The notes: a model not told the origin generated them from the letters alone. A stretch of 64,000 nucleotides of DNA from an uncultured Methanosarcinaceae archaeon (GCA_963727895.1 CAVSHT010000005.1:352001-416000), one strand, 5' to 3'. Counted from the first letter of the stretch, positions 1-55,260 are shown. Program-made: numbers and translations.

Positions 1-547
1 GTCAAAGTGCGGGCTTTATTTAGGAGATCTGGCTGGGCTTCCATTGGTTTCAAAAAACACATTTAAAAATTGTGGATACGGAGTTTATATTTATACTGAT
101 ACTTATCCAGGGCGATTGGATACGTTTACAAATAATAAATATATAAATAACAAAGTTAAGATTGGATGGGGTACTGATTATTATCTATAACGTATCCTCT
201 TCAAATTGTATGGGTAAAAGTAAACTTCATGTATTTACTGAATATTTAAAAATTTAATAAAATTAAAGAAACAACCGCATGCGATTCATTCAACTTTACA
301 ACTGTCTGATAAAATTGGTGCATGTTTTTCGAGTCGGAAAATTCTCCATTGAATTTGAAGAGAATACGATTTTATTAGCATTGGGATTTATTAATTATTG
401 GGATTTATCAGCTATTGGGATTTATTGTCTATTATTTGGAATGAGGATGCGTAAATATTTCATATCATCTCCTTCTTTTTTGGACTTATCGGTAGTTATT
501 TGAAAAGAAAAGGGTAAAGAGTTTTTATATATCTCCTCTGTCAAAGT

Positions 548-16035: not shown

Positions 16036-16063
16036 GCCCCACTATATAACCGGAGGTTATATT

Positions 16064-20503: not shown

Positions 20504-22887
20504 ATGAGTGAAGCAAATAATTCACAGGATAATATGCAGTCACCCGAAAAGGTTGAGGGAGAGCCCGAGGCAGTTTATGTTCAGGCACCCGTCGATGAAG
20601 TGCAAGCGAGAATTGAAAAACTTGCAAAAAAGACTGGTAAAAGTGCTGATATTATACAGGCAGAACTTGATAAGATCATGCAAAACATGCGCGGTGATGG
20701 AGTTAATAATGCAACTCAAGCTGACAAATTGCGAGGAGCACTTATATTTTTAGAATCGCAAGTGTCCAACTACACAAAAAGTGTATTACCTGCTGATGAA
20801 TGTGAAAGTTCTAGTATAATGTCACAAACACGAGCTGACAAGTTTTATGGTTTAAAGCGAAATCCAAATATAGTGCACATCGATTCAAAAACTTACATTT
20901 TGCCATATGATGAGGAGAAAGGCGTATACTATGAATTCGATTCCAATCCTGAGACATCTGGCAAGCGTGGTGAGATTGTTAAAATCACTGCAAAACGAAA
21001 TAAAGACGAGTCATATTTCTGGATCAGAGAGAGAATATGTAACTGTATGACCATGGTTACAAGCTATCATCACTCGTTGGAGTCAACACATTGTTTTGTT
21101 GAAATTGCATATACTGACTACAGTGACAGAACTGCAATATGGAAACAAAAAACAATTCCAGCTGAAGCAATAGCAACAAAAGATGGACTTAAAAGAGTTG
21201 TTGTGCCAGAAGGCATAGCCATTATTGAATCGCAGTTTCAAGATATGATTGAATTCTATAGCTTGTGTATTGCACATAATGATCATCAGAAAAATACAGA
21301 TTTCACTTGTGGTAGTGTGACTGAAACCACTGGCTGGAAAAAAATCAACAAAACTGATATGACATCTAACATATTTGTTGTTGGGAATTATGCATATTAT
21401 CTCAAAAATAACAATATCGAGCGACGCTGTTCACTATTCAACGATACTAAAAATGCTGACGTTGAATCTAAGCTTCAACAAAAAGGCACATTGGAAGGCT
21501 GGATTGATGCGGTACGACCACTTATCGGCCACAATATCGTTAGAGTAGTTTGTTATGCCGCAATGGCATCAACATTAATCAAAGTTCTAGGAAGTCCACA
21601 ATTTACACTTGGTATAGTAGGCGAGAGTTCGATCGGTAAAACACTTTCGACGCAAGTTGCAGCAAGTCTCATCGGAAATCCAAATGATAAAGATGGTGGA
21701 CTATTAGATAGTGGTGATGTCTCAATTACTGGTTTGAGTGCAATTGTCACAACATTTAATGATCTCCCATGTTTCTTTGATGAAACAACAACAATGAAAG
21801 AAGACGTGAAAAAATATCTGGGTTATTTGATTGCAAATGGTCAAGAACCAAAGAGAGGAACAAAAGATGGAAAACTACGTGACAAACATCCAATTAGATC
21901 TAATGTGATACTGACTGGTGAAACCGATTTTATCTCAAGAGTTGCAAATGATGGTGCACAAACGAGAGTTATAGTGATTAGAGATCGACCAATTCCAAAG
22001 CTTGACTACCCGAGCATACTATGGCAGTCGAGGGATAAAATGCTGGAAAATTTTGGTCATGTAACACCACTATTTCTCAAGCAAATCGATATGCTAGGTA
22101 GACAGCAACTTATCAATGCATATCATGTACTTAGAGAATATTATGCGAAGACAACAACCGATGAAAAACAACAAAGAAAAGCACAGTGTTTTGCTTTGAT
22201 GGAAATTGCCGGGATATTGCTCGAAAAAGTATTTGTGAACATTGGAATTGAATATAAGGATCCTCATAAGGTCACTCAGTCACTTTGGGAACGCTGTGTT
22301 ATAGAGAAACCTGATGTATCACTTGCTGTACGAATCGCACAATCAATAGATGAATATATCGAATCAAATAAACTAAATAATTTCATCGTCAATAATAATA
22401 AAGATGCCAAAATAAGTGGTGATGGACTATATGGCTATATTAAAATAAAAAACGACGAATACAACGCTTGTTTGTACCCAGATAAGCTCAATGCACATCT
22501 CAGAAAACATGACTATAGTATGACCCCAGTGTTTGTTACAGGGATTTGAAAGTAAAGGGTATAATCAAAGTCGATCCAAAGAGACGCGATTTTACAAACA
22601 ATGTTCACCGTGGTGGAAATAGACTTCAGCTAATCAACATTGACATGCTTAAGTTGCAGGAATATATAGGTATGAAATCAGAGCCAGATTACAATACTGA
22701 TGACATCACTGATGTACTCGGGGATGTGATAGCATATTCAACTCCTATAATATCACCTGTGACTGGCGAGCCAATACGGACATGGAGTGATTTAAATAAG
22801 CCTTGTAAGAAACTCGAACCAAAAAAACAAATCGATGAATCCGAGTTTCCACAAAATCCCTACGATTCTATTGATGATGAATGGTAA
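20504..22887 (+). CDS. DUF927-type P-loop replication helicase; C-terminal domain (22546-22887) separated by an apparent frameshift
   Basis: TGW motif, Walker A GESSIGKT, Walker B PCFFDE, ILTGE; the downstream ORF continues as DLKVKGII... one base out of frame at ~22540. Confidence 0.75.
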
Positions 22888-24082: not shown

Positions 24083-25639
24083 ATGAAAAGTCATAACAAA
24101 ATTAAGTACAGAGATTTAATATCTGTAGTTCTAATTTTAGTTTTATTATTGGTATCATCTGTGGCATCTTTGGCCACTGCACAGACTGGTTCTTCCGGAA
24201 ATACTGCATATGTTACTAATGATGACGGAACTATTTCTATCATAAATACTGCATCAGACACTGTTATAGCCACAGTGCCTGTGGGAAATGATCCTTATGG
24301 AACTACAATTACTCCAGATGGAACAATAGTTTATGTGACAGATTACAAAGCTAACAAAGTTTATGGAATTGACACAGCTACAAATACTGTTACAGCCACA
24401 ATACCTGTAGGCGATGTCCCTTATGGCATTGCAGTTACGCCAGATGGAAAAAAGATCTATGTAGCAAATAATGGAGATAAGACAGTTTCGGTAATTGACA
24501 CAGCGTCAAATAGTGTTATAAAAACAGTTTCTGTGGATAGTAATCCTTATGGAGTAGCAGTTAACCCATCGGGAACGAAAGCATATGTAACAACCTCAGG
24601 TAGTAATTCTGTATATGTAATTGACACTTCAACAGATACTGTTACAGATAAAGTAACTGGATTAAGTGGTGCCTATGGAATTGCCTTTAATCCAGATGGT
24701 TCACAATATTACATAACAGAGAGGGGAACTAACAGTGTTTCTGTCATTGACAGTGAATCAGATAAGGTTGAGACGAGTGTACCTGTAGAAAAAGACCCAC
24801 ATGGAGTTGCAGTAAGTCCGGATGGAACAAAAGTATATGTGGCAAACAATGGAGATAACACCGTTTCTGTAATTGACACAGCCACAAATACCGTTACGGC
24901 TACAGTAAATGTTGGAAATGCTCCTTTTGGGGTTGGAGTTACATCAGATGGAACAAAAGTATATGTAGCTAACCGTGGACAAGATAATCGTCAATTAAAA
25001 ACTGTATCGGTAATTGACGCATCAAGCAATAATGTTATAAGTACGATAAATGTAGGAACCAATCCAAAGGCTTTTGGGTTATTTATAAGCAGTTATTCAT
25101 CAGCCACTGAATCTAATACAGGAACTTCTACTAATACAGGAACTTCTACTAATACAGGAACTTCTACTAATACAGGAACTTCTACTAATACAGGAACTTC
25201 TACTAATACAGGAACTTCTACTAATACAGGAACTTCTACTAATACAGGAACTTCTACTAATACAGGAAATTCGACTCTTTCTAAAGTTATTAACAATTAT
25301 AATAATATTACCATATATAATAAAACTAGTAATAATAATAACAATAATATAAATAGTGGAAATAATATTACAGGCAATAATATCAATATAGGAAATACTA
25401 CAAACAGTGGTAATAATATTAGTCATAGTAACATCGATAATAAAAATAATACGAGTAATAATAACATAAATGGCAATAATAATATAAATGGCAATAATAA
25501 TATAAATGGCAATAATAACATAAATGGCAATAATAACATAAATGGCAATAATAACAACTCTACAGAACATGGGTCTAGTTGGTTAGATGTTATTTATGAA
25601 GGTGTTATAGCCAAGCTGTTTGAGTTAATAAAATTGTAA
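24083..25639 (+). CDS. Secreted YVTN beta-propeller surface protein with Ser/Thr/Asn-rich tail
   Basis: Signal peptide, seven ~42-aa YVTN/PDG repeats, NTGTST and NNNING repeats. Confidence 0.9.
   Translation: MKSHNKIKYRDLISVVLILVLLLVSSVASLATAQTGSSGNTAYVTNDDGTISIINTASDTVIATVPVGNDPYGTTITPDGTIVYVTDYKANKVYGIDTATNTVTATIPVGDVPYGIAVTPDGKKIYVANNGDKTVSVIDTASNSVIKTVSVDSNPYGVAVNPSGTKAYVTTSGSNSVYVIDTSTDTVTDKVTGLSGAYGIAFNPDGSQYYITERGTNSVSVIDSESDKVETSVPVEKDPHGVAVSPDGTKVYVANNGDNTVSVIDTATNTVTATVNVGNAPFGVGVTSDGTKVYVANRGQDNRQLKTVSVIDASSNNVISTINVGTNPKAFGLFISSYSSATESNTGTSTNTGTSTNTGTSTNTGTSTNTGTSTNTGTSTNTGTSTNTGTSTNTGNSTLSKVINNYNNITIYNKTSNNNNNNINSGNNITGNNINIGNTTNSGNNISHSNIDNKNNTSNNNINGNNNINGNNNINGNNNINGNNNINGNNNNSTEHGSSWLDVIYEGVIAKLFELIKL
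25113..25270 (+). repeat. Coding 18-bp tandem repeat (CTAATACAGGAACTTCTA x8 plus partial)
   Basis: Direct reading; encodes NTGTST. Confidence 0.9.
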
Positions 25640-28433: not shown

Positions 28434-30004
28434 ATGATTACAAAGGAAGATATAGAAATATCAATTGATAAAAAAGTATATTTGTCTCTTTTAATTATAT
28501 TTTTATTTCTTCTTTCATTAACGGCATCGATAGCTGCTGCACAAACTGCATATATCACTAATGATGATGGAACGGTTTCTGTCATAAATACTGCATCAGA
28601 CATTGTTATAGCCACAGTGCCTGTGGGAAATGATCCTTATGGAACTACAATTACTCCAGATGGAACAATAGTTTATGTGACAGATTACAAAGCTAACAAA
28701 GTTTATGGAATTGACACAGCTACAAATACTGTTACAGCCACAATACCTGTAGGCGATGTCCCTTATGGCATTGCAGTTACGCCAGATGGAAAAAGATCTA
28801 TGTAGCAAATAATGGAGATAAGACAGTTTCGGTAATTGACACAGCGTCAAATAGTGTTATAAAAACAGTTTCTGTGGATAGTAATCCTTATGGAGTAGCA
28901 GTTAACCCATCGGGAACAAAAGCATATGTAACAACCTCAGGTAGTAATTCTGTATATGTAATTGACACTTCAACAGATACTGTTACAGATAAAGTAACTG
29001 GATTAAGTGGTGCCTATGGAATTGCCTTTAATCCAGATGGTTCACAATATTACATAACAGAGAGGGGAACTAACAGTGTTTCTGTCATTGACAGTGAATC
29101 AGATAAGGTTGAGACGAGTGTACCTGTAGAAAAAGACCCACATGGAGTTGCAGTAAGTCCGGATGGAACAAAAGTATATGTAGCTAACCGTGGACAAGAT
29201 AATCGTCAATTAAAAACTGTATCGGTAATTGACGCATCAAGCAATAATGTTATAAGTACGATAAATGTAGGAACCAATCCAAAGGCTTTTGGGCTATTTA
29301 TAAGCAGTTATTCATCAGCCACTGAATCTAATACAGGAACTTCTACTAATACAGGAAATTCAAATAATAATAATAATAATAATTATAATAATAATAATAA
29401 TAATTATAATAATAATCTTGATGTAACTGATATATATCTTGAAAATAATAAACAAAAAGCAAAACTTGCATTCAATCCTACTCCACAAATGATATTTGGT
29501 AAATCAAAAAAAGTTGATGCATACATTACTACGAATCTATCAAAGAATATTTCTCAAGAATACGGATTAAATGGAACACTTCAATCTAAGAATATTAATG
29601 CAACACCAACAGTGAGAGTTACATTAACAGGTGAAACTGGAGCTTTTAACATAGAGACAATCCCTCCGAATTCGAATGGAATTCAGAACATAACAAACGA
29701 TATTGTATATTGGAATTGGCAAGTAACACCACTAGAATCGGGAAAGCATAAACTTTTCTTATCTGTTGAATATGTAATACCTCTAAATGATTATGACTCT
29801 CAAAATTACAAGACTCTCAAAGACATAGAGGAAGAAATAAATGTAAAATCAAACTACGATTATTGGTTTTCAAAATATTTGTGGGAAATACTTGGTGCTA
29901 TAGTTGGAATAGTTGGTATGATAAGTAGTATACTAACTATACTGGAGTTTATACGAAAATTTATACAAGAGTTCCTTAACAAGCATAAAAAAGAGAATAG
30001 TTAA
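28434..30004 (+). pseudogene. Second YVTN beta-propeller gene, frameshifted, with poly-Asn linker, beta-rich domain and C-terminal TM anchor
   Basis: Near-identical to ~24240-25140; one A missing at ~28790 (GGAAAAAGATC vs GGAAAAAAGATC); one 126-bp repeat absent. Confidence 0.85.
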
Positions 30005-30349: not shown

Positions 30350-30766
30350 TTATTTCCGCTCTGCCAACTCATATCCCTGCTCAATCACGTTTACCAACCA
30401 ATCGTTCAAAAACTCATTAAGCTCCTTCTTGAGCTTTGGGCTATACTTTCCTGGCTCTGGATATACCTCTTGATAAATGCCCAGATAGTCGTTTTGAAAA
30501 GTAAGAGCCTCGGCGGATTTTGAAGCTGGGTATATCTTGACTTGCACATCTGGGTCCGCCATCACATCACCGTTCTGGATGCCATTATGAGCTAGAGCAA
30601 TAATATCATTCAAGAGGTTATCTACACTAAGATCCATAAGGCCCGAAGCCTTGAATTTCATATACTCGGCTTGCATAACCCCGGTTTCGTCCAATATCCC
30701 CAGTTCTTGTAGGTTTCTATAAATCGATTCATATATTGTCTGTTTTATTTTACCCACCCACTTCAT
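30350..30766 (-). CDS. Conserved MGE hypothetical protein (DUF1249/DUF6908-like)
   Basis: MDLSVD...ALAHNGIQNGDVMADPD...AEALTFQND...LNEFLNDWL.N..EQGY pattern. Confidence 0.65.
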   Translation of the reverse strand: MKWVGKIKQTIYESIYRNLQELGILDETGVMQAEYMKFKASGLMDLSVDNLLNDIIALAHNGIQNGDVMADPDVQVKIYPASKSAEALTFQNDYLGIYQEVYPEPGKYSPKLKKELNEFLNDWLVNVIEQGYELAERK

Positions 30767-33615: not shown

Positions 33616-34709
33616 TTTTGATTTATTATATACATCGAACCGAGTACCTAATTGGATTGAAAATAATGTATATAGTATGCAAGTAACCGTAAAATCGAAA
33701 TTGGTTGTAACAGAAGAACAAAAACAAAAATTCTTACAGACCATGATAAGATTTAACGATGCTTGCAATTATGTTTCGCAAATTGCTTTTGAAAGCAAGA
33801 CATATAACAAATTCAAACTCCAAAAACTTGTGTATTATGATATACGAGAAAGATTTGAGCTGTCAGCTGATTTTTCACTGCTTCAGATTTATCAAAAACT
33901 AATCAGCTATCGATTCTAACACTTAATGGTAGAATCAAAGTTGGTATACAGTACAGTGATTACAGACAAATTGATACTAAAACGATGTTCTATAATCAAG
34001 CTGATCTGTTATATAAGAAAGGCGATTTCTATTTGATGTTAACAATAGATATGCCTGAACCAGAACCAATAGAGACAACTGGATTTCTAGGTGTTGATTT
34101 GGGGATTGTCAATTTAGCGACGACTTCAGATGGTAAAACATATTCTGGTGAGAAATGTACTGAAGTTCGAAAAAGATATGCTAAATTGAAAGCAGCTTTG
34201 CAATCAAAGGGAACATATTCTGCCAAGAAGCATTTGAAGAAAATGAGTGGTAGAGAACGTCACTTTAAGCAAAATACTAATCATTATATTTCTAAAGATA
34301 TCGTTGAGATAGCTAAAGACACAAATCGCTCTATTGTATTAGAAGAGTTAGTAGGCATTAGAGCGAGGACAACAGCTTCTAGAAAGCTTAACGATATTCT
34401 AGGTAAATGGGCATTTGGAGAATTAAGAAGCTATATCGAATATAAGGCTAAAGAAGTTGGAGTACCTATTGTAATAGTAGATCCACGTTACACATCACAA
34501 CAATGTTCAGTTTGTGGACATACTGAAAAAGATAATAGAAAGCATCAAGCCCATTTTGAATGTAAACATTGTGGGCATACTGAAAATGCTGATATTAATG
34601 CGGCAAAAAATATAGTTTCTAGGGCAGCCATCAACCTGCCTATTGTGTTCTACCTGTCTCAGGAATTTGAAACGCAAGCCATTGGGTCTTTAGCCCAATG
34701 GTAGTTGAA
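33558..34709 (+). mobile_element. Non-autonomous IS200/IS605-family (TnpB-only) element; left boundary approximate
   Basis: Related subterminal hairpins CCCTTGGATCTTTAGTCCAAGGG (33570-33592) and CCATTGGGTCTTTAGCCCAATGG (34679-34701); no tnpA. Confidence 0.75.
33677..34704 (+). pseudogene. tnpB: TnpB RNA-guided nuclease, frameshifted/internally deleted near 33880
   Basis: N-terminal FNDACNY; RuvC GVDLG, IVLEEL, NADINAA; Zn finger TSQQCSVCGH...CKHCG; split into two frames. Confidence 0.85.
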
Positions 34710-35135
34710 AAAAGTGCCAAAAAGGTGCCAAAGAGCCCCATTCCTAAACTTTTTGAGGAATTTGAGCTAAATATCCTCGATAATATATTTTTCTCTTTTC
34801 GTGCAAACTATTCGAGACTTTAAATACTACGCCTCCTATTTTTATATACAGACAAAATATATTATTATTTAAATACTAATATAAAAATCAAGAAGAGGAA
34901 GCACGAAAATGAAAACATATCGGGCAAAATGTATGGGTAAAAACTGTAGAATGGACTCAATGATGAAAGCATCAGCTAAAAGGCACTGCTTTCACCTAAA
35001 GAGGCGGTATAATGGTCGTAAGGCAGACTAAACGACTTCGCAAATATATCCCAGAAAAATCAAGGTATGTAAAATCAGCTAATGGGATAATGAGTCAAGC
35101 ATTCAAGCTGATAAAAGCAATGAGGCGGTGATATT

Positions 35136-35447
35136 GTGGCAACGAAGTTCATCATGGGATATCCTGTAGATGTTAATGATGATCCAGAGGACGAATCTCT
35201 AATTCACAAAGTCAAGCAGTTCAAGCCTAGCAATATGATGGGTCACACCTTCACTAAGCCACCCACTAGACTGAATTTGATAGAAACCAGCGGCTTACCA
35301 AAGTCAAAAAACTTGAGTCAACGACGCGGGGATATATTAACGCAGTATGAGCCTCGTAGAAGGAGAAAGAAAGCTATTCCGGAGTTTGAATCGCAGTTTA
35401 TAGGGGATCAAAATCCCTATGGTGACGATATGGTACAATGGCGGTGA
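35136..35447 (+). CDS. Hypothetical soluble protein with basic patch RRRRKK
   Basis: SD GGTGA, GTG start, coupled to downstream genes. Confidence 0.55.
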   Translation: MATKFIMGYPVDVNDDPEDESLIHKVKQFKPSNMMGHTFTKPPTRLNLIETSGLPKSKNLSQRRGDILTQYEPRRRRKKAIPEFESQFIGDQNPYGDDMVQWR

Positions 35448-35452
35448 ATTAA

Positions 35453-35743
35453 ATGATTGAAGGAATTAAAGTCCTTATAATGCGAATTATTGTATCATTA
35501 TGCATTGTCATTGGTGCCATGCCGCTATACAGGTTTATTTACGCATTTGCAGTAGGAACAAATCCAAGCTATTGCCTAGAAGCGATGTACACCGTTAATT
35601 CGAGCGTAAACATGATTTATCCTATTGCAATGATCGGAATTGCAATCGCGGTATTTCACATTTACTACCGCTGTGTTAGAAAGAGAGTTTATGAAAGCAC
35701 ATATTCGGAGACAGGATATTATGACCCCTACACGCGAACGTAA
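35453..35743 (+). CDS. Small two-TM hairpin protein (candidate virion protein)
   Basis: Two hydrophobic helices with basic RKR after TM2. Confidence 0.6.
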   Translation: MIEGIKVLIMRIIVSLCIVIGAMPLYRFIYAFAVGTNPSYCLEAMYTVNSSVNMIYPIAMIGIAIAVFHIYYRCVRKRVYESTYSETGYYDPYTRT

Positions 35744-36035
35744 GCTTCTAAAGCGGCTAAATGATTATATCCATGAGTCTGAGCCTGCGTTGGTAGTCTG
35801 CTGGTTCGACATAGTAAAAACTTTGATATTCGTAGCCGCGATTTGGGTTTGTCTGTCCCCATTGCTTGATGCTTTTTATCTCTACGTGAATGCAAATTCA
35901 TCGGGCTTTTACGCAAATACAGACATTGAGTTCACTTCTAGTGTATACAATTTTTGGCGGTACATACCGATCATAACAGTTGGTTTTGTACTTTTCTATG
36001 CAATCAACTACTCGAACTGGAAGAGGAACGAGTAA
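35721..36035 (+). CDS. Small two-TM hairpin protein (candidate virion protein)
   Basis: LIFVAAIWVCLSPLL...NSS sequon...WRYIPIITVGFVLFYAI. Confidence 0.6.
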   Translation: MTPTRERKLLKRLNDYIHESEPALVVCWFDIVKTLIFVAAIWVCLSPLLDAFYLYVNANSSGFYANTDIEFTSSVYNFWRYIPIITVGFVLFYAINYSNWKRNE

Positions 36036-36123
36036 TTTTCTTTCTTTTTTGCTGCTCACTATATCGAAAACACCAAAAAATATATGTGGCCGGCACTGTA
36101 TTAATTAATTGAGGTGATAGAAG

Positions 36124-36288
36124 ATGAGTGATGTTATACAGTGGTTTATAGGTGTTGGAACAAATATGCTTTGGATGATGGCAATCGTTTTTATAATGTT
36201 TACTGTCATGCTGATTATTTGTCATTTCTTACCAGAGCGACCAGCGGAGCCAGAACAAGCTGATGAGCAGCCAGAAGCCATAAACTAA
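36124..36288 (+). CDS. Single-TM small protein, 54 aa
   Basis: Read by hand: MSDVIQWFIGVGTNMLWMMAIVFIMFTVMLIICHFLPERP...; SD GAGGTGA; T-rich tract after the stop. Confidence 0.55.
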   Translation: MSDVIQWFIGVGTNMLWMMAIVFIMFTVMLIICHFLPERPAEPEQADEQPEAIN

Positions 36289-36649
36289 TTCTCTTCTTTT
36301 CTTCTTTTTCTTTTTTTGCGTCTTCTTCTACCGATTACTAATTCGAGGGTATATATATTCGGCACCGAATTATTATATACAGACGAAATATAATATTATT
36401 TACATATTAATATAAAAAAATCAGTAAGAGGAGACTTAAAATGAGTAAAATTGTAATCGGGATGACAGCCGACGTGGCTGAGACACTTGGCAATATAATC
36501 AATAGCGGGGTAAATTCAAGCTCGAACAACATGACGATGCATTCATCATTTTGAATGGTGCAAAAATCTATCGAAAGTATTCATCAATAACGTGGGCTGC
36601 GAAGAAGTATGATCGGCTCACTTCAATTTTTACAAAGGAGTGAGGGCAA

Positions 36650-38217
36650 ATGCATAAAAATATCCCAAGAATAATATTATTCACTTTACTATTTAGCTTG
36701 TTCACTGGTGCAGCTGGTGCATTGATAGCTATTCATTTGAAATATACGGATCTGGTAATTCTTCAGTTCGCGGTACAATCTATCAAACAATGAATTTTAC
36801 CAATGGTAGCTATTATACTATTGGTGCTTGGATGAAAACATCACCTGGTGCAGTAGGATTTTTAAAGGTGAATATCTTTAATAGCACTGGGAGTTATGAT
36901 TCCGCAGCAGCTGCGATGGGAACAGCTACAACAACGTGGACGTGGGTTTCGACTCGAGTCTTGGTCACAGTTCCACAAGCGCATGTTCGTATATTTCTAG
37001 CACTATATCAGACACAAAGAATGTATATTGTCACAGTTCCACAAGCGCATGTTCGTATATACGCAGATGCTACACCAAATGGTAACTTCTATGTAGATGG
37101 TATCATTGTATCACCTGATTCTTCATATTCAGCGAATGAATCAAATGATTCAACACACCTCTATCAGTCGTTTATATATACGCCTGCTACGGTCTATTCG
37201 AGTTCAGTATTTGCAACCAGTTTCGCGACTGAAACCCCTTCTAAGTATTCAAATAATGTTGCAACAGCAAAAATTGATGGTGCAACTGTTTCAGCTTGGA
37301 TTGCAAATAATCTAATATATGTCGATACCTCAGGTTTAACAGCCGGTGCACATACAATTCAGGTAACTGTAACACACGATGCACTTGTGTATGTAACTGC
37401 GGCTTTCAGCGCAAATACAACAAGTGGTCAGATACCACTCACTGTTGCTTTTACTGATACATCTACTGGCTCACCAACAAGCTGGGCTTGGAATTTCGGC
37501 GATGGCAGTACATCTACATCTCAAAATCCAACACACACATATAGCACATCTGGCACATATTCAGTCAGTTTGACTGCAACAAGTGCAAATGGTGCAGATA
37601 CCGAGACTAAAAATGCATATATCACAACGTCATCGACAATACCCACCGCAGCATTTTCGGGCTCGCCAATAATGGGTACTGCACCATTAACAGTGCAATT
37701 TACTGATAAAAGTGCTGGTGCGTCACCAATAACATATTTGTGGAATTTTGGTGACGGTAATACATCGACATATCAAAATCCATCACACATATATATCGCA
37801 AATGGCAACTACACGGTGAATTTGACTATCACAAATTCATACGGCACCAATAGTACATCTAAAACAGCATATATCGTCGTAGGCACATCTGACGCTGCAA
37901 ATAATACATTCAGAAACTATAGCCAATATAAAGATGTATTATTTCAGTCAAACATGTCAGCGTGGGACTTTGTGAAAAATACAAAGAATTTCTACGTAAG
38001 TTTCATGCCTGAATGGTTCTTCTGGCTGATCATATTGATCATCCCATATATTGGAATGTATAATAGACAGGGTGGTATTGAACTTGTTGCAGTGCTATAC
38101 TTGTTTACTGGTGGAATTGTTGCCCTTGTAATGCCAACTGTCATAGCACCCTTTGCAAAATGGTTCCTGATCTTGGGTGCCGGTGGCGTAATATATAAGA
38201 TGTTTGTTCCCGATTAA
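36650..38217 (+). pseudogene. Membrane-anchored adhesin (CBM-like + 2 PKD + 3 C-terminal TMs), signal peptide out of frame
   Basis: WNFGDG PKD motifs twice; YTIGAWMKT CBM-like strand; signal peptide at 36650 is in another frame; internal ~30-bp duplication (VTVPQAHVRI x2). Confidence 0.75.
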
Positions 38218-38343
38218 GGCTATTACGCTTCCTCTTCTTCGTTTTCATCGACTTCCGAGGCTTTTTATACTTTGTAACCTTTTTATAAACATAAAATATA
38301 TATTAATATTTAAATATAAATATATAAATCAGTGGTGAGAAGC

Positions 38344-38577
38344 ATGAACTCCTCTCATGACATGTTTAGCTTTGCCTTCGTGGCAATAATGATATTGGGC
38401 GGCATAGCAATGCTGTCTAGCGTTGTCTATATTGGTGGGCTGACTAATGCAACAGCTCCATTACATAGCACATTTACAACGATGACAGGGCTAATGAACA
38501 GCGGGATTGGGCTGGCAGCTATTGGTGTTATAGCATTGGGCGCTGGTATAGTGTTAAGAGTGTTCGATTATATTTGA
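38344..38577 (+). CDS. Small Gly/Ala-rich helical-hairpin protein, candidate major capsid protein of spindle-shaped virus type
   Basis: 77 aa, two long hydrophobic helices joined by an LTNATAP loop carrying an N-glycosylation sequon; has its own copy of the repeated promoter. Confidence 0.5.
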   Translation: MNSSHDMFSFAFVAIMILGGIAMLSSVVYIGGLTNATAPLHSTFTTMTGLMNSGIGLAAIGVIALGAGIVLRVFDYI

Positions 38578-38588
38578 GGGATATTATA

Positions 38589-38909
38589 ATGGTGCTACCT
38601 ATAAATGCTTGGCTAATGATCGTGATAATAGCGATTGCTTGTTCAGCGATTTCAATTTTTATAAAAGACTGGCAAAATTATATAGACGCCATTTGTGGTG
38701 TGCTTGCAGCAATATTATGGCTTATTTCAGGGCTTGCTTGGCTGTCAGGTATTGCTACAGACAATGCAACTTATATAGCGCCTTATTTGTTTTGGGTGTT
38801 CTTAGCGATCGCAGTAATTCAGGCTATACTAGCAATTGTTAGAATTTTGGACATATTGACTGAGAGAAAGAAAGAACAGCACACGTCATTTGCACCTATT
38901 CATCTATAA
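38589..38909 (+). CDS. Three-TM small membrane protein
   Basis: Hydrophobicity; closely coupled to the previous gene. Confidence 0.6.
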   Translation: MVLPINAWLMIVIIAIACSAISIFIKDWQNYIDAICGVLAAILWLISGLAWLSGIATDNATYIAPYLFWVFLAIAVIQAILAIVRILDILTERKKEQHTSFAPIHL

Positions 38910-39160
38910 GAAGGCAGTTTTAGTCCTCTATTATGTTATTTTTGGACTTCCTATTTTACCTAATACATTTACATCAGGCATAGACAATCGCTTAAAATAT
39001 CCCCTCTACGAAGGCTAGATAAGTCTGTATTTTGGCACTTTGAGTCGATTTTTCGAGGTTATTTATATCTTGAAGCGCTATTTCTATTTACAATAAAAAA
39101 TCTATTAATATTTACTAATTAATATATAAGTACACCACAAATTGAGGCTGTGAGCAAAAT

Positions 39161-39553
39161 ATGCCACGAGATGTGCTTAATATAAGCAAGTTAACTGATA
39201 AAGAACAGCAGATATTAAACAATGTACTCGAAGACAAATATGATCAAAAAGGATTAATGACGTACGGAGACTCAAATACTCGATGGTTCGAGAACAATAT
39301 ATGGCTTAACAAATTATATGTTTCATTAATAATTGTCATGATCAGCGCCGTGATTGATAGTATAATATCTCCGCATGCAATGAGTGATATTTATACACTG
39401 TTTGCTACTGGCTTTCCTGCAATTGATGATCACCTACGCGTTTTTGGAAATACAGGTTTAGCAATAGCGATTTTAATCGATATAATTACAGCATACATCA
39501 TAATATCGCTACTAGACGTATTTAAATTAGTCAAAAATCATTTTAGTAAGTAA
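39161..39553 (+). CDS. Two-TM membrane protein
   Basis: Hydrophobic segments; preceded by the repeated promoter cassette. Confidence 0.6.
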   Translation: MPRDVLNISKLTDKEQQILNNVLEDKYDQKGLMTYGDSNTRWFENNIWLNKLYVSLIIVMISAVIDSIISPHAMSDIYTLFATGFPAIDDHLRVFGNTGLAIAILIDIITAYIIISLLDVFKLVKNHFSK

Positions 39554-39873
39554 TATATTAATACTCACTTTTTCTTTTCACATGTAGTTTACTTCTAACG
39601 GCAAATAGAGAAACCGTAATCGATATTCGAACCTTTTTATATATTGAATCCCTATTTCTATTTACAGAAAAAATATATTACTATTTATATACAATTATAA
39701 AAGTCAAATATAACTGGCAGGTAGTATCGAATCGGAAAGGCTTAAACAACCTTCGTGGTAGCCACGTATACCTCGCAATTTTATCGCAGGCTGGATGGTT
39801 GGAATATTTAGAACTTCAGATACGATATCATCTCAAAAAGTCCACAACACATTGCAACAAATGAGGTGAAATT

Positions 39874-40395
39874 TTGGCCAGAGGGATCTACCACAAGACA
39901 AATGTTTTAAAGTTTAGGATTATGCACGCGGTATTCAATGCAGGTGAACCACTAACATGTAGAGAAATAGCATCCCGCCTTGATGTACCGCTTGTAAATG
40001 TAAGCGCCATAATGAATCATTATCAAAAGCAACCTGAGCATAAGTATTTTCGGTGACTAAAGCCAATAAAAGGCAAAGCATATCGATATAAACTCACAAA
40101 AAGCGGTGCGAAATACCTTGCAAAATATTGTTGGCGGCTGCATGAGGGCTTCAGTCTATCACTATATAAAGTAAAAAAGATGCCAAAGCGAGATAAAGTC
40201 ATAGCTGAGCGCAATGCTGAAGCTGAGTTGAGAGATGCTATATTTGAAAAAACAGGTGTTGAAATGCCTAGAAAGCCAAAACCAACAATAAAAGAACTAT
40301 TAAACTTTGATCCCGCTGAGTTAACCGATTACATGGGCATTACAAAAATGGGAGCGCTTGAAATGGGAATTACAGGATTCGACTTTGAGGTTTAA
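39874..40395 (+). pseudogene. Winged-helix protein interrupted by an in-frame TGA at 40054-40056
   Basis: LTCREIASRLDVPLVNVSAIM...YFR*LKPIKGKAYRYKLTKSG continues in frame into ORF 40180-40395. Confidence 0.7.
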
Positions 40396-41116
40396 TTCTC
40401 ATTCTTTAACCTCATACCACAATCAAAATAAACGTATTGATTTGGGATATTTGATAGTTGAGCCAATTCCGACCTTTAATTTTTGTCTCAATTTTAAATA
40501 TTTACACTCCATGTAGCTGCCTCCACGAAAACTGCCTTATATTATATTCTTGAGCGGCTTTGAGCGGTCCGTTCGCTGAATCTCGAACCGGTAGGCATTT
40601 TTGGACTTTTTGTCGATTTTATTAGGCTAAACGTAATTAGCTGCTCTGTATTTGTAGACTTATTTCGGAATCACAGTAATTATTAATGACACTCTAAACA
40701 CTGGTTAACATTTTGTATATCTATCTCAGTAGCCTCACCTCTAAGCTTTCTATAGATCCCACAATAACGCTTATCACAAGCTTTTTTACATGTATATGAA
40801 TTATTTCGATATGCAGAACATCTTAAAGCGTATTCGCATTTGATATCAAACATATCCAGCCCCTTTTAAACTTCAGTTGTTTCCACTTCATTTTCGAGCC
40901 TACCCCAAAGCTCAAAATCACTTCTCTAATGCTCAAATATTAAAAAAGAAAACAGCACAACTGGCTAATGTAGGTACTTAAACACCAGCCAGTTAGGATT
41001 TATTTTAGTTATTTAACTTTCAAGTATAGTTATACGTTTTTATTTCTAGTATCAATATTCAGGGTGTAAGTATACTAAAACATCAGTAACTTAGGGTTAT
41101 TGTCTTTCCATATGCT

Positions 41117-41545
41117 TCATCGGTAGTATTTATTATAATTGTTATAAAAGTTGTTATAATTGCCATACCAGCTGTGATAATTGCCGTACCAGCTGTTATA
41201 TTTTAACAACCACGCCATGTACATTTTATACCAATTATTGTAATATTTGTCGTGCTTCTTGTGGTTCCACTCATTCTTTTGGCGGTTCCAATTATTCCTT
41301 TGTTGGTCCCAATTATTCTTTTGGCGATTCCAATCATTCTTTTGGCGATCCCAATTATTCCTTTGTTGGTTCCAATTATTTCTATCCCCAATATTCTTTT
41401 GCTGGTTCAAATTATTTCTATCCCCAGTATTCTTCCCACCATTATTATATGCATTATTCGGAGCTGCACTTACTGCTGCAACTGTCACTGACATTACAAA
41501 ACAAAATGCCAGCAAAATTCCTAGTATCTTTCTCATTTTCAGCAT
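41117..41545 (-). CDS. Secreted Asn/Trp/Tyr heptad-repeat protein
   Basis: Signal peptide; NNWNQQR/NNWDRQK x6 and YNSWYGN-type heptads. Confidence 0.75.
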   Translation of the reverse strand: MLKMRKILGILLAFCFVMSVTVAAVSAAPNNAYNNGGKNTGDRNNLNQQKNIGDRNNWNQQRNNWDRQKNDWNRQKNNWDQQRNNWNRQKNEWNHKKHDKYYNNWYKMYMAWLLKYNSWYGNYHSWYGNYNNFYNNYNKYYR

Positions 41546-42182: not shown

Positions 42183-44315
42183 GTGCGACAAGATGTTATG
42201 TCATAAATTGCCTTGTGCTACTCTTTCCATTTAGAGTAATCCTATTATGAGGTGCATCAGCAGTAATGCAGTTGTACTAAGCTCGTAAGACAATGTGGAA
42301 AAGCCTGAAAGTCTAACTTGGGTCATCTGCTAGGGTAAAAATGCTATGAAGAAACATATGTTGAATCATTGTACGGGTCGTGACTCATGACAAGCGAAAC
42401 TAGACTGATACGCTTGAACCAAACGGTATGAAAGCAGGCTGCGATGGTGTTACAGACGTCGCAGAAAATGGACATACGACTTTCCGGTCTATAGATGGCT
42501 TCTAAAGCATTTACATTATTTGTGACATAAAACTTGGTAAGCCCTATATGCTCCTTTTAATAAAAAAAAAAAGAGGTAGAGACTCTGTGAAGGGAATTAA
42601 TTGCATAGAGGGTAGAGGATTCAGTAAAAAGCGAATGTCAATCTGTAATGGAATTGGATAGGGGTTCAAACTTTGCCTTGATCCGAAAGGGTGCAGACTT
42701 ACTGATTGGTGTTCTATTGTATGAAAGGAGGCAAACTTCTGAATGTAAGTATTTCAACGATATCCCTTCAGGATAAGAAGCTTACAGACGCTCATCTCTC
42801 CCAGAAATGGAAAAGTATCAACTGGCATCAAGTAGAGAAGAGTGTTAATAAGTTGCAAACCCGAATTACAAAAGCAGTCTTACAAAACAAATGGAACCTT
42901 GTCAAGAGATTACAGTATTTACTGACTCATTCCTATTCCGCCAAACTTTTGGCAGTAAGAAGAGTTACTCAAAATAAAGGAAAAAGGACATCTGGAATCG
43001 ATGGTGAGAAATGGTTAACACCTGACTCCAAAATGAAAGCTGTTCTTAGTCTCACTGGTAAAAGATACAAAGCTAAACCCCTTAAAAGAGTCTTCATCAA
43101 TAAACCTGGTAAGAAGAAGAAACGTCCTTTAGGTATCCCTACAATGTATGACAGAGCTATGCAGTCTTTATACGCATTAGCTCTTGAACCCATAGCTGAA
43201 ACTATGTCTGACATCAGGTCCTTTGGATTTAGAAAACACCGAAGTACTAAGGATGCATGTCAGCAAATCTTTCTATGTTTAAGCAAGAAAAATTCAGCCC
43301 AATGGATCTTAGAAGGCGATATTAAAGGATGTTTTGATAATATAAATCATCAGTGGTTGCTGGCTAATATTCCAATGGAAAAGTCAATACTAACTCAATT
43401 TCTCAAAGCAGGTTTTATTTACAAACGTCATCTGAATCCAACAAAAGCAGGCACGCCACAAGGCGGGATGATCTCCCCTATTTTGGCTAATATGACATTG
43501 GACGGTCATCGAGAAGTTACTTTTGGCTGAATACCCAAAAAGAAAAGAATTCAACCAAGGTTAACTTCATCAGATACTGCGATGATTTCATAGTAACTGC
43601 TAATTCAGAAGAAACTGCCAGAGAAATCAAGGATATGATTGCTGTTTTTCTTAAAGAAAGAGGTCTTGAACTATCTGATGATAAAACTCTTATCACAAAT
43701 ATTAATGAAGGCTTTGACTTTCTGGGCTGGAATTTCCGCAAGTACAAAGGCAAGCTTCTGATCAAACCTTCCAAGAAGTCCATTAAAAGATTCACTGAAA
43801 CAATTAGTCAAACCTTAAGAAAAGGGATAGCATGGTCCCAAGATAACTTAATTTCCAAACTAAATCCAATAATAAGAGGTTGGACTAACTATCATAATTC
43901 AGTGGTCTCTTCGGAAACATTCCAGACACTTGACCATCGAATCTGGGAAATGTTATGGAGATGGGCTAAAAGAAGACATCCAAACAAATCCAAAGATTGG
44001 ATTGTCAACAAATATTGGAAGCAAAGTACTACACGAAAATGGAACTTCAGAACAGAAAGAAACAGTTTATTGCTTTTATCCAAAACCAGAATCTATAGAC
44101 ACATTCCTTTAAAACTGCAAATGAATCCATTTCTTGATATCGACTACTTCCATGAACGTCATAATAAATTAAGTTCCCGGAAAAGTCAATCCGTTTGAAA
44201 AAAAACTGCTGCCTGATACAGAAAGGGTTATAGAACGCTTGAGCCGGATGAAGGGAAACTTTCAAGTCCGGTTCTTAGAAGAGGGAGAGCGAGTAATCGC
44301 TCTTTCTTATTCAAC
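42183..44315 (+). mobile_element. Group II intron
   Basis: 5' GTGCG; domain V GAGCCGGATGAAGGGAAACTTTCAAGTCCGGTTC, domain VI hairpin, 3' end ...TTCAAC. Confidence 0.9.
42721..44198 (+). pseudogene. ltrA: Group II intron reverse transcriptase/maturase, frameshifted near 43505-43550, no HNH endonuclease domain
   Basis: RVT_N, RPLGIPT, EGDIKGCFD, PQGG, YCDD (out of the first frame), GFDFLG, NPIIRGW maturase motif. Confidence 0.85.
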
Positions 44316-45293: not shown

Positions 45294-45313
45294 CAGGGTT
45301 TATCAAGAACAAA
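45294..45313 (+). repeat. attR core CAGGGTTTATCAAGAACAAA
   Basis: Identical to 15972-15991. Confidence 0.9.
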
Positions 45314-53612: not shown

Positions 53613-54469
53613 GGTTCTGTTGCAAAAAATCATAATAAGGATTCAATTGAATAAGAAGAAAATCAATAGAACGATAATATGCTATCTAATTCCTTTAAGT
53701 GGAAACATTACGAAGGAGAAATCATTTTATTAAACGTCAGATGGTACCTAAAATATCCAGTAAGTTATAGAAATTTAGAGGAAATGATGGCAGAGAGGGG
53801 AGTAGAAGTTGATCATAGTACTATCATGAGATGGGTACATCAATACTCTCCTGAAATCGAAAAGAAGGTAAGAAGGCATTTAAGACCAACAAACGACTCT
53901 TGGAGAGTTGATGAAACTTACATCAGAGTTAAAGGTAAATGGAAATATTTTTACCGAGCAGTTGACTCAAATGGAGATACAATTGATTTCATGTTAAGTG
54001 CAAAACGAGATCAAAAAGCAGCAAAACGTTTCTTTAAGAAAGCTTTGAATTCTAATCATAATCAAATTCCAAGAGTAATCACAGTTGATAAAAATCCAGC
54101 TTATCCACCTGCTATAGATAAACTGAAAAATGATAAAATACTACCTATAAACGTAGGCATTCGACAAATCAAGTATTTGAATAACATTATAGAACAAGAT
54201 CATAGATCCATTAAACGAATAGTTAATCCAATGTTAGGATTTCAGTCTTTTAACACAGCTATTAAGACTTTAAAAGGAATTGAAGCTATGAATATGATTA
54301 AAAAAGGACAAATCAAAAACCTAAATTACTCTGGCTTTAATGAAGCTAAATATATTAATCAATTATTTGGAATAGTTCTATAATATTGACACATCTTTTT
54401 GAATATTTGTACTTTTGTTTATTGATTATGGATTTACATGCTTATTCTGAGATTTTTTGCAACGGAACC
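53613..54469 (+). mobile_element. IS6-family insertion sequence matching 4221-5077
   Basis: Same TIRs and length; identical 234-aa transposase. Confidence 0.95.
53679..54383 (+). CDS. IS6-family DDE transposase
   Basis: Protein identical to 4307-5011. Confidence 0.95.
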   Translation: MLSNSFKWKHYEGEIILLNVRWYLKYPVSYRNLEEMMAERGVEVDHSTIMRWVHQYSPEIEKKVRRHLRPTNDSWRVDETYIRVKGKWKYFYRAVDSNGDTIDFMLSAKRDQKAAKRFFKKALNSNHNQIPRVITVDKNPAYPPAIDKLKNDKILPINVGIRQIKYLNNIIEQDHRSIKRIVNPMLGFQSFNTAIKTLKGIEAMNMIKKGQIKNLNYSGFNEAKYINQLFGIVL

Positions 54470-55260
54470 AATTAATATGTAAGGATGGATCATTCCTATG
54501 GACGCGTGTAAATGCTAAATCCCTTTTTGATAAGGATGGAAAGTTTATGGGCGTTATGAGCATGCTCACTGATATTACTGAACGTAAAAAAGCTGAAAAA
54601 GCTATGGCAAATTTTGAGATTGCACGCAAACAGGAAATTCACCACAGAATCAAAAATAACCTCCAGGTAATATCCTCGCTTCTCGACCTTCAGGCTGAGA
54701 AGTTCGATAATCCAAAAGTTATTGAGGCTTTCAGGGAAAGCCAGAACCGGATTATATCTATGGCTCTTATCCACGAAGAGCTTTATAAAGGTGAAGAAAC
54801 CGATACATTGGACTTTTCCACATACATTATCGAGTTAGCTGAAAACCTTTTCCAGACATATAGATTTAGTAGCAAAAATATCCATCTGAGCATGGATCTG
54901 GAAGAGAATGCGTTTTTTGATATGGATACTGCTGTCCCATTAGGGATAATTGTTAATGAACTTGTTTCTAATTCTCTCAAACATGCATTTCCCGGCAGAG
55001 ATGAAGGAGTAATCCAAATCAAACTCCGTAGAGAAGAAAATGAAGAACGCAAAAAGGAAAGCAATGAAAGTACTAGTCTTACTCTGACCGTTTCAGACAA
55101 TGGCGTGGGCATTTCAGAAAACCTTTATTTGGAAAATCCCAACAGTCTTGGGATACAGCTGATAACCACCCTTGTAGATCAATTAGATGGGAAACTTGAA
55201 CTGAAAAGAAATAATGGAACTGAATTCGCTATAAGGTTCACAGTAACAAAAGAAAAATAA
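54470..55260 (+). pseudogene. C-terminal part (PAC + HisKA_2 + HATPase) of the kinase split by IS6
   Basis: EIHHRIKNNLQ, NELVSNSLKHAF, DNGVG, SLGIQL; starts with the AATTAATA duplication. Confidence 0.9.

Follow-up and report, generated by a model that had tools for sequence, protein, structure and literature searches.

A conserved membrane and surface gene module in a family of Methanosarcinaceae integrative elements

Introduction

Known viruses and mobile elements of methanogens are few, and the Methanosarcinaceae are key methane producers. In the Pleolipoviridae, genes for small membrane proteins are followed by one for a C-terminally anchored surface protein of about 500 aa and then by more small membrane proteins. 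Elements of the pT26-2/TKV family and pR1SE combine an integrase and a replication protein with a block of uncharacterised membrane proteins, with no recognisable capsid. Archaeal Ced/Ted pilins are two-helix hydrophobic hairpins with a leader. In the spindle-shaped virus SSV1, the capsid protein VP1 is reported to be cleaved before a conserved Glu by a protease given in that source as unknown (PMC5748691). A protein-primed polymerase is reported to be encoded on Methanosarcina contig C1697 (PMC9796341).

Here we analyze a 64,000-nucleotide stretch (the window) from an uncultured Methanosarcinaceae archaeon, in which a first-pass annotation had taken positions 35453-39553 for a candidate morphogenesis module of a spindle-shaped or enveloped virus. 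We find that this region is a coherent and conserved membrane and surface gene module of an integrated element. The best explanation we can offer for it, to which we give a probability of about 0.4, is that the module of this element family would build a membrane-derived transmissible particle.

Results

The module is harbored by a mobile element of 29.3 kb (15992-45313) integrated in the methanogen chromosome. Flanking it is a 20-bp direct repeat, whose left copy (attL, 15972-15991) sits at the 3' end of an AI-2E transporter gene and matches perfectly the right copy (attR, 45294-45313), upstream of a threonyl-tRNA synthetase gene. The element is absent from 9/9 related genomes checked; there the site is empty and has the 20-nt att sequence once. 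The element encodes a tyrosine integrase with a C-terminal zinc ribbon (16001-17269, + strand; Pfam Phage_integrase E 3.5e-19), homologues of which are found in related elements. Integrase, flanking direct repeats and the empty site in relatives identify an element that a tyrosine recombinase has integrated into this transporter gene's 3' end. A DUF927 primase-helicase (20504-22549, + strand; Pfam DUF927 E 6.6e-34; phrog_8841 DNA primase/helicase E 7.9e-54), with a Walker A motif at 21620, is the only P-loop protein of the element and, going by these domain matches, its replication protein. A DUF6908 protein (30350-30766, - strand; Pfam DUF6908 E 1.9e-27) has a 53% identical homologue in the related element L028.

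The window copy of the element is decayed and may have lost its autonomy. The HTH regulator gene (39874-40395, + strand) is a single frame with one in-frame TGA at 40054-40056, and its 154-aa homologue in L029, which is uninterrupted, aligns across 39874-40365. A group II intron reverse transcriptase/maturase within the element (42706-44198, + strand) is split into two ORFs, with Pfam matches to RVT_N (E 4.6e-35) and RVT_1 on 42706-43530 and to GIIM (E 3e-28) on 43635-44198. A TnpB-like ORF of the IS200/IS605 type (33985-34704, + strand; Pfam Cas12f1-like_TNB E 5.3e-26, OrfB_IS605 E 1.4e-9) is inserted immediately upstream of the module. The first-pass annotation had reported no terminase, portal, HK97 capsid or VirB4 and no evident packaging or extrusion ATPase. 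Both statements are borne out, the first by Pfam searches with 21 and 33 window ORFs and PHROG searches with 22, the second by a Walker-A scan of the element, in which the pattern is confined to the DUF927 helicase and a chance occurrence in the TnpB-like ORF. Its conclusion that the copy is therefore defective or a satellite does not hold: none of the four fully read relatives has such an ATPase (0/4), so the absence is a family trait and no sign of a defect in the window copy.

In the module, a 475-aa PKD-domain protein is surrounded by seven ORFs that are small and hydrophobic, all on the + strand, much as the first-pass annotation had described it. At its head stands m103 (35136-35447, + strand), a small basic soluble protein that matches no Pfam or PHROG family and has relatives by local HMM in L028, L029 and L030. 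Next come m96 (35453-35743), with 2 TM by hydropathy and homologues at 35-44% identity in L028, L029 and L030 and, by local HMM, in L032, and m104 (35721-36035), which overlaps m96, has 2 TM and a loop sequon at N59, and has homologues in four relatives. m104 is possibly a distant paralogue of m96 (hhalign Prob 23, E 9e-4). They are followed by m54 (36124-36288; 1 TM by hydropathy), for which no relatives were found, and by m47 (36650-36793), a signal-peptide-like ORF in another frame that, in a three-frame reading, shares an ATGA overlap with the start of the PKD-domain surface protein m475 (36790-38217; Pfam PKD_4 E 6.7e-39; C-terminal TM segments). Downstream lie m77 (38344-38577), a 2-TM two-helix hairpin with a loop sequon at N35; m106 (38589-38909), with 3 TM and a conserved D-x2-N-Y-T-D loop; and m130 (39161-39553), a variable cassette with 2 TM, a soluble N-terminus and a homologue in L011. 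Compared with metagenomic relatives, dN/dS is 0.045 for m104 (vs L010), 0.10 for m77 and 0.11-0.18 for m106. Because the values lie at 0.045-0.18, we regard the small ORFs as real genes, and by these estimates purifying selection acts on at least three of them.

The units of the module stand behind five copies of a promoter-like repeat of about 80 nt, found by repeat search and alignment on the + strand at 34810-34887 (with TATA-like boxes), 36341-36418, 38251-38328, 39052-39130 and 39626-39703. Their alignment has 42 invariant columns and a mean column identity of 72%. It is at these repeats that units are gained and lost. The metagenomic relative L010 aligns over 35577-36035 and then passes straight to 38313-39058; absent from it is a variable cassette (36036-38312, + strand) of m54, repeat copy 2, m47, m475 and repeat copy 3. 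Around m130, contigs of the public runs X3 and X5 have 106 other letters in place of 38923-39644.

The adhesin m475 contains two PKD domains, hydrophobic segments at aa 401-469 and 13 N-x-S/T sequons, compared with 7.5 +/- 2.3 in 2000 shuffles (at least 13 in 31/2000). It is a shortened form of adhesins of 1029-1031 aa in relatives. The L029 homologue carries a signal peptide, DUF2341 and three PKD domains, and m475 aligns to its residues 350-624 and 821-1031. The frame of m475 is open for about 30 codons upstream of its own ATG, and m47 may be its detached signal peptide. A 66-nt tandem duplication within the gene (36964/37030) is missing from one contig of public run X1. The adhesin is a swappable cassette, truncated in the window copy. 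In L045, the C-terminal end of a 781-aa adhesin copies the loop and helix 2 of the hairpin protein (hhalign Prob 80, E 1.4e-5), as would be expected of a minor subunit joining the same lattice. Nothing hairpin-like was detectable at the C-terminus of m475 or of its 1031-aa homologue, which speaks against the particle reading.

Sequence comparison places the element in a family of Methanosarcinaceae integrative elements with shared synteny across loci L028-L035. The family-wide set comprises the integrase, the DUF927 primase-helicase, the HTH regulator, an m77-family hairpin and m106; the m96/m104 pair is limited to one branch, and some relatives add large PKD/DUF2341 adhesins and a basic low-complexity protein of 1362-2186 aa. 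By the same comparison m106, modeled as three helices (pLDDT 90), is the most conserved marker of the family. It is present in 13/177 Methanosarcinaceae genomes and has 36 representatives among 1.84 billion proteins. The hairpin profile matches 20/177 of these genomes at E<=0.01, and public data contain at least 139 clusters of the family, many of them from contigs 10-40 kb long. Hairpin and m106 are tightly linked across several Methanosarcinaceae genera (codes g1, g7, g8, g12 and g13). The family is present in cultured-strain records, with titles naming Methanococcoides sp. FTZ1 and Methanolobus vulcani PL 12/M. Smaller loci retain the hairpin(s) and m106, along with an m106 partner of 231-251 aa, and nothing else of the set, and in the Methanolobus-type examples L033 and L035 a profile search found no adhesin, m96 or m104. 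Pattern scans of 2.9 million IMG/VR viral contigs found no relatives of the module, and 50,697 phage records gave no match in tblastn with m106 and m104 or in blastn with the module DNA. These absences, like the reduced gene set of L033 and L035, count against a viral particle. In the literature searched, the family is described nowhere, and none of the tools used has a name for it.

In an alternative explanation, the module is membrane cargo without a role in transfer, and the integrative plasmid carrying it spreads in some other way; the cargo could remodel the cell surface, exclude superinfection or be a small toxin/immunity-like set. The reduction of smaller loci to hairpin(s), m106 and its partner would suit such cargo, as would the dispensable adhesin and m130 cassettes, the lack of any module family with a known structural role, and a weak match of one adhesin C-terminus to a circular-bacteriocin family (E 0.13). 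Yet hairpin and m106 are under strong purifying selection and stay linked from genus to genus, and the module is accompanied by a giant protein that is not membrane-bound and by adhesins, among them one with the C-terminal half of the hairpin. The promoter-like repeat common to the units further implies co-ordinated expression of the whole set. We consider cargo an unlikely explanation.

Several traits of the hairpin protein are coat-like. Members of the m77 family are helix-loop-helix proteins of 77-96 aa with a conserved sequon in the loop (FYNLSQSV). The AlphaFold model of m77 has helices at 3-30 and 41-76 (pLDDT 70), and hhalign pairs m77 with the 91-aa hairpin of L032 at Prob 84.7 (E 6.7e-6). 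In relatives the hairpin has an N-terminal leader that ends in G ahead of an acidic residue; m77 has hardly any leader. Local HMM searches found two hairpin genes per element in L042 and L044, and L032 and L033 each appear to have two, as judged by eye from hydropathy and sequence. The first-pass annotation had described m77 and m104 together as fusellovirus-like hairpins with sequon-bearing loops. Both have two hydrophobic helices and a sequon (N35 and N59), but they belong to different families.

In language-model space, two divergent hairpin members, which share only about 25% identity, lie nearest to clusters named His1_capsid and VP1_VP3-like, with scores of 0.85-0.88 and 166-179 shared features; these matches are leads only. 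Pfam VP1_VP3 (PF06281) and His1_capsid (PF25665) gave no match at E<=10 to m77, m104, m96, m106, m130 and 15 proteins of relatives, in a search whose positive controls SSV1 VP1 and VP3 scored E 2.4e-19 and 1.8e-38. When the hairpin family was compared by hhalign with SSV1 VP1/VP3 and two true His1-like capsid proteins, E reached only 0.07-0.25, and the Foldseek matches in PDB and BFVD were generic helical hairpins throughout and never reached E<=0.001. His1_capsid exceeds its cut-off in 1/177 genomes and has no match in the genomes carrying m106 (0/13). The spindle-virus proposal thus survives in part, as a conserved membrane and surface module of a mobile element with the m77 hairpin and the language-model leads; kinship with known capsids is not supported by these profile, hhalign and unspecific fold searches. 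True His1-like virus contigs do occur in the host family: L054 and L055 encode a small capsid protein and several small multi-TM proteins, L054 also encodes one very large protein, and their general layout resembles that of the module. L055 carries an 826-aa ORF.

It is very improbable that the element belongs, as a member or a satellite, to an already named group such as the Eurekaviridae, the Pleolipoviridae or the archaeal inovirus-like proviruses and that the module is their known structural module. Such groups are present in related hosts: PQ167755 (Eurekaviridae) is described as a classified Methanosarcina spindle-shaped virus with a circular genome and two capsid gene copies (PMC12451623), an SSV1-like capsid gene is reported on a Methanosarcina-assigned contig (PMC9796341), and Methanosarcinaceae inovirus-like proviruses have been reported (PMC6813254). 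However, no Pfam capsid profile matches, and the tblastn and blastn searches of the phage collection gave no match. The element has no pleolipovirus-type NTPase, and the combination of this NTPase with family-specific spike and membrane proteins that marks the Pleolipoviridae was not found, DUF927 being the sole P-loop protein. Zot-type ATPase (PF05707) hits fall in five carrier genomes, either at a distance from the module or on separate contigs; the profile also matches in 4/14 control genomes; a pI/Zot ATPase next to small coat genes, the mark of inoviruses, was not found.

The hairpin also invites comparison with pilins. The module might build a pilus or a pilus-like transfer and adhesion organelle through which the element spreads by cell contact. 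The hairpin would then be its subunit, of VirB2/TrbC-like or prepilin-like kind; an A24 aspartyl peptidase would mature it, host secretion ATPases would help to polymerize it, and the PKD proteins would be tip or minor subunits. A match to conjugative pilins, which the first-pass annotation had named as evidence against its proposal, is indeed faintly present: three hairpin members have TrbC/VirB2 (PF04956) as their top Pfam hit, which spans the whole hairpin each time but stays below cut-off at E 0.013-0.043. A small A24 prepilin-peptidase-like gene lies inside the L032 module (E 3e-5, 24.8 bits, cut-off 26.5), and another adjoins m106 in L012 (E 9e-4, below cut-off). The hairpin leaders end in G a few residues ahead of the hydrophobic helix, though they are atypical for a class III signal peptide; in some relatives (L045:10842-11216, L068) helix 1 is fused, pilin-style, to a small globular domain, and the adhesin sharing the C-terminal half of the hairpin would fit here too. 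Thaumarchaeal integrative-conjugative elements are reported to contain prepilin peptidases and pilins (PMC6563490). Against this, neither the window element nor four relatives yielded a VirB4, VirD4, FlaI/PilB or platform protein in Pfam and Walker-A scans. All hairpin scores for TrbC, at 14.5-16.1 bits, fall far short of the 27.9 cut-off, and such matches are poor evidence because SSV1 VP1 obtains comparable ones to unrelated membrane families. An A24-like gene is missing from the window, m130 being unlike A24 (E 0.43), m77 is almost leaderless, and the language-model neighbors of the hairpin are viral capsid clusters rather than pilins. We regard a pilus-like organelle as conceivable but doubtful.

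Discussion

If the module builds a membrane-derived particle, this could be a plasmid vesicle or else a virus-like virion of spindle or pleomorphic shape. The hairpin protein, for which m77 is the candidate in the window, would sit in the cell membrane as the major coat subunit, its loop probably glycosylated. The PKD protein would bind the receptor, anchored by its C-terminal helices, and minor membrane or assembly roles would fall to m106, m96 and m104. The particles would leave the cell by budding, for which a packaging ATPase would be unnecessary. A fuller scheme, which we think improbable, is that the elements are a new family of temperate budding Methanosarcinaceae viruses with a prepilin-like hairpin coat. 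Here the leader would be cut after the glycine by an A24-type aspartyl peptidase, encoded by the element in some members and by the host in others, and the loop-glycosylated hairpin would assemble in the membrane with adhesins, some bearing its C-terminal half. If true, this would connect the maturation of spindle-virus capsids, SSV1 VP1 cleavage among them, with the type IV prepilin pathway.

If particles form, the elements would represent an additional virus family whose coat protein is missed by current capsid profiles; if pili form, they would be a transfer system without an ATPase of its own. Either reading offers concrete genes that are testable in cultivable strains.

Set beside known systems, the module resembles the Pleolipoviridae in gene order, and non-lytic budding would fit; it differs in having no NTPase gene, a surface protein of PKD/DUF2341 modules and no PHROG or Pfam link. 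The element shares with pT26-2/TKV and pR1SE the layout of integrase, replication protein and membrane-protein block without a recognisable capsid, and its hosts are Methanosarcinaceae. With VirB2/TrbC pilins and archaeal Ced/Ted pilins, the hairpin has in common two hydrophobic helices and a leader; unlike VirB2/TrbC systems, no element read contains a VirB4-type ATPase or a VirB6-like protein.

The likeness to spindle-shaped viruses extends over several features. Like SSV1 VP1/VP3 and His1-type capsid proteins, the hairpins have a size of 70-100 aa, two hydrophobic helices and a short loop with N-glycosylation sequons, and, as with these capsids, there is a paralogous second copy per genome and an N-terminal leader in most members. 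The hairpin family differs in its own conserved motifs, IIKVACILVIGVVILN, FYxLxxSV and SGYTLAALMVLALGAGAIM, and the element replicates with a DUF927 primase-helicase, whereas a DnaA-like replication protein is annotated in the SSV1 record and contig C1697 is reported to have the protein-primed polymerase (PMC9796341). Methanosarcina spindle-shaped virus 1 (accession PQ167755), likened by its description only, comes from a related host group and has two capsid-like copies (PMC12451623). As with spindle-virus capsid genes, the neighbors of the hairpin genes are small multi-TM proteins and a large surface protein, and the hairpin leader, ending in G before an acidic residue, recalls the reported cleavage of SSV1 VP1 before Glu (PMC5748691).

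A conserved set of membrane-protein and adhesin genes

On the + strand, positions 35136-40395 encode, in order, m103, m96, m104, m54, m47, m475, m77, m106, m130 and an HTH gene, the m-names giving the length of each ORF in amino acids. At the head of this module, from 35136, m103 is a small basic soluble ORF; it is followed by the overlapping m96 and m104, with two transmembrane (TM) segments each, and by m54, with one. The signal-peptide-like m47 lies upstream of m475 and overlaps its start by ATGA. m475 has two PKD domains (Pfam), hydrophobic segments at aa 401-469 (hydropathy) and 13 sequons against 7.5 +/- 2.3 expected, with 13 or more in 31 of 2000 shuffles. After this PKD adhesin come m77, a two-helix hairpin, m106, with three TM segments, m130, with two, and the HTH gene, which closes the module at 40395. 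Two candidate assignments, the m475 C-terminus as a copy of hairpin helix 2 and m130 as an A24 peptidase, were not supported. An m77 profile run against PDB sequences gave no more than a chance match (E 2.3).

An AT-rich repeat of about 80 nt with TATA-like boxes stands before transcription units in five copies (34810, 36341, 38251, 39052 and 39626), and the strict form of this promoter-like motif occurs twice in the window versus 0 times in 100 shuffles. Immediately after the first copy, a 40-aa Cys/His- and Arg-rich ORF (34909-35031, +) may encode a small zinc-binding protein. The small module ORFs are genes: in comparisons with metagenomic relatives of 72-80% DNA identity, m104 has a dN/dS of 0.045, m77 of 0.10 and m106 of 0.11-0.18. 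These results confirm the first-pass annotation's observation of a membrane-protein and adhesin gene set at 35453-39553.

The module lies within an integrated element

A 20-nt repeat occurs in two identical copies. One (15972-15991) falls in the 3' end of an AI-2E transporter gene and immediately precedes a tyrosine integrase; the other (45294-45313) is upstream of the threonyl-tRNA synthetase gene. The left flank is present in 51 of 58 same-genus genomes. At all nine of the best-matching loci from these 51, the left flank runs straight into the right one, with one repeat copy in common, so 15992-45313 is, judged from these empty sites, a 29.3-kb insertion. Its cargo beyond the module comprises zinc-ribbon ORFs, a DUF927 primase-helicase, duplicated beta-propeller surface protein genes, a DUF6908 gene, a TnpB-like ORF immediately upstream of the module, and a group II intron with a split reverse transcriptase. 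No terminase, portal, HK97 capsid, VirB4 or other morphogenetic ATPase was detected (Pfam on 54 window ORFs, PHROGs on 22), and a Walker-A scan of the element hit the DUF927 helicase and, by chance, the TnpB-like ORF. The reported absence of these proteins, packaging and extrusion ATPases included, is thus borne out.

The beta-propeller (YNCE-like) genes at 24083-25639 and 28434-30004 contain a segmental duplication of about 1.1 kb, its copies 81-100% identical, and carry long N/T/S-rich 18-nt repeats. At 41117-41545 (-), a secreted 142-aa protein has N/Q/W-rich repeats encoded by 21-nt DNA units. A paralogue of 155 aa is encoded at another locus of this genome (L111, contig C4:266500-270500), the remnant of a second related element. 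L111 also has an o71 homologue and 409 nt that match window 40086-40494 at 100% identity, and it abuts another IS240-type transposase. The window itself has two IS240-family transposase ORFs of 234 aa in inverted orientation (4307-5011, -; 53679-54383, +) with identical Pfam results. Each adjoins one apparent half of a single PAS sensor histidine kinase: a 935-aa PAS part ending in a partial PAS domain (5036-7843, -), and 267 aa that begin with a partial PAS domain and continue into HisKA_2 and HATPase (54457-55260, +). The inverted pair and the split kinase suggest that an IS-mediated event inverted about 49 kb, integrated element included.

Relatives within and beyond the Methanosarcinaceae

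By word-based searches, m106 and m77 had only 3-4 close relatives; an exhaustive profile search of 1.84 billion proteins recovered 36 m106-family representatives. The m106 profile matches 13 of 177 Methanosarcinaceae genomes, own genome counted, and 3 of 348 genomes in a phylum-wide sample outside the family, all weakly. m77 is homologous to the 91-96-aa hairpin proteins of related loci (hhalign Prob 84.7, E 6.7e-6). The hairpin family profile matches 20 of the 177 genomes at E<=0.01, and it recovers 139 clusters from a 5.8-billion-protein collection, all unnamed or 'hypothetical' and many on 10-40-kb contigs. Of the 13 m106-positive genomes, 8 have a hairpin gene no more than about 1.1 kb from m106; in another, with two loci, it lies 10.5 kb away on the same element. 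Two narrow family alignments (A11 and A12) matched 5 genome records and 0 viral contigs. By record title, related loci belong to Methanococcoides sp. FTZ1, Methanolobus vulcani PL 12/M, an uncultured Methanolobus and an uncultured Methanosarcinales archaeon.

The larger relatives (L028+L045, L029+L041+L042, L030+L044 and L032) and the window have most of the following in common: integrase, DUF927, HTH gene, m103, m96, m104 and m106. DUF6908 is common to the window and L028 only. In some of them there are, in addition, 1029-1031-aa adhesins that combine a signal peptide with DUF2341 and three PKD domains, a basic low-complexity protein of 1362-2186 aa that matches no Pfam family, or a second hairpin gene. 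Neighbors adjoining the module in two relatives, a KwaB-like protein (L030 8080-9027, -; E 7.9e-24) and a PIN-domain protein with a DUF4325 protein (L029 8137-9334, +), are by their predicted domains defence-type cargo.

A small A24 prepilin-peptidase-like gene is present in L032 (E 3e-5) and in L012, a 3.9-kb metagenome contig (E 9e-4), both below the Pfam cut-off, and three hairpin members match TrbC/VirB2 weakly. That the module builds a pilus-like organelle whose maturation depends on an A24 peptidase is rather unlikely. L012 also encodes tandem paralogous ORFs of about 70 aa at 138-578 (-), two complete and one truncated at the end of the contig, each starting MIG..R.I.G.WYEAT and neighbored by an m106 homologue (47% identical) and the A24-like gene.

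The window's copy is decayed and built of exchangeable units

Of a 1031-aa homologue, m475 covers aa 350-624 and 821-1031 only, without the signal peptide and DUF2341 domain; a signal-peptide-like ORF lies just upstream in a different frame. m475 also carries a 66-nt tandem duplication that is missing from one contig of public run X1, and its N-terminal 200 aa found no match in 176 other family genomes. The window's HTH gene has an in-frame TGA where the L029 homologue is whole, the giant protein gene of some relatives is absent, and the copy has gained an IS-type TnpB-like ORF and a broken group II intron by insertion. Together, these features indicate that the window copy is decayed. The first-pass annotation had called it defective or a satellite for want of a packaging or extrusion ATPase; the decay stands and the reason given does not, because the four relatives examined in full lack such an ATPase too.

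The module is also built of exchangeable units. The metagenomic contig L010 joins m104 directly to m77, without the 2277-nt cassette 36036-38312 (m54, m47 and m475), and contigs of two public sequencing runs carry 106 other letters in place of 38923-39644, the m130 unit. Six public DNA runs contained a low share of the sequence; among the matches listed there was no RNA run and no virome. Three 35-40-nt matches at 88-89% identity were found in other genomes in a CRISPR test, with a repeat array at 0 of the 3.

The hairpin protein partly resembles spindle-virus capsid proteins

We favor, at a probability of roughly 40%, a reading in which the module is the structural set for a membrane-derived transmissible particle. 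The hairpin would be its coat subunit and the PKD protein an exchangeable receptor-binding protein. That the module is membrane cargo with no role in transfer is considered unlikely. At its C-terminus, the 781-aa adhesin of L045 repeats the loop and helix 2 of the hairpin (Prob 80, E 1.4e-5); a complex prediction for four hairpin copies gave no verdict (score 0.00). m106 is modeled confidently as a three-helix bundle, with generic matches only (VIA-align 2, ~48,000 PDB chains, Z <=10.5) and a best E of 0.018 in BFVD, where a Nitrosopumilus spindle-shaped virus protein ranks fifth (E 0.17).

Identity with a named virus family is very improbable. No relative was found in IMG/VR or in a phage collection that lacks PQ167755, and no description of this element family in the literature searched, the 2023 methanogen virus compendium aside (background: PMC9796341, PMC12451623, PMC6563490, PMC5748691 and PMC6813254).

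His1_capsid genes exceed the cut-off in only 1 of the 177 family genomes, G043, which lacks m106. There, the contigs L054 and L055 encode tandem capsid proteins of the true His1 type (78.4 and 57.5 bits), several small multi-TM proteins and a 1460-aa protein; L055 also has an 826-aa ORF, a possible polymerase, and a P-loop ORF. Both contigs have the appearance of spindle-shaped virus genomes within this Methanosarcinaceae assembly.

The proposal that the hairpin is a spindle-virus capsid protein holds in part. Pfam capsid models, which recognized SSV1 VP1 and VP3, matched no module protein at E<=10, profile comparison by hhalign with four capsid proteins was null, and fold searches returned generic hairpins only. 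The hairpin is a candidate member of the capsid family; its resemblance in architecture is real. In the ESM Atlas, two hairpin members with a mutual identity of only about 25% have His1 capsid and VP1-like clusters as their nearest named neighbors, at 0.85-0.88, scores that, below 0.9, are leads only. Hairpin and spindle-virus capsid proteins have in common a two-helix architecture (hydropathy; AlphaFold model) and a conserved loop sequon. A second hairpin gene is present in several elements (L042 and L044 by local HMM; L032 and L033, as candidates, by eye). Hairpin relatives further share with SSV1 VP1 (...KLTKG/EATNIG...), cleaved before a conserved Glu by a protease described as unknown (PMC5748691), a leader that ends in Gly before an acidic residue.
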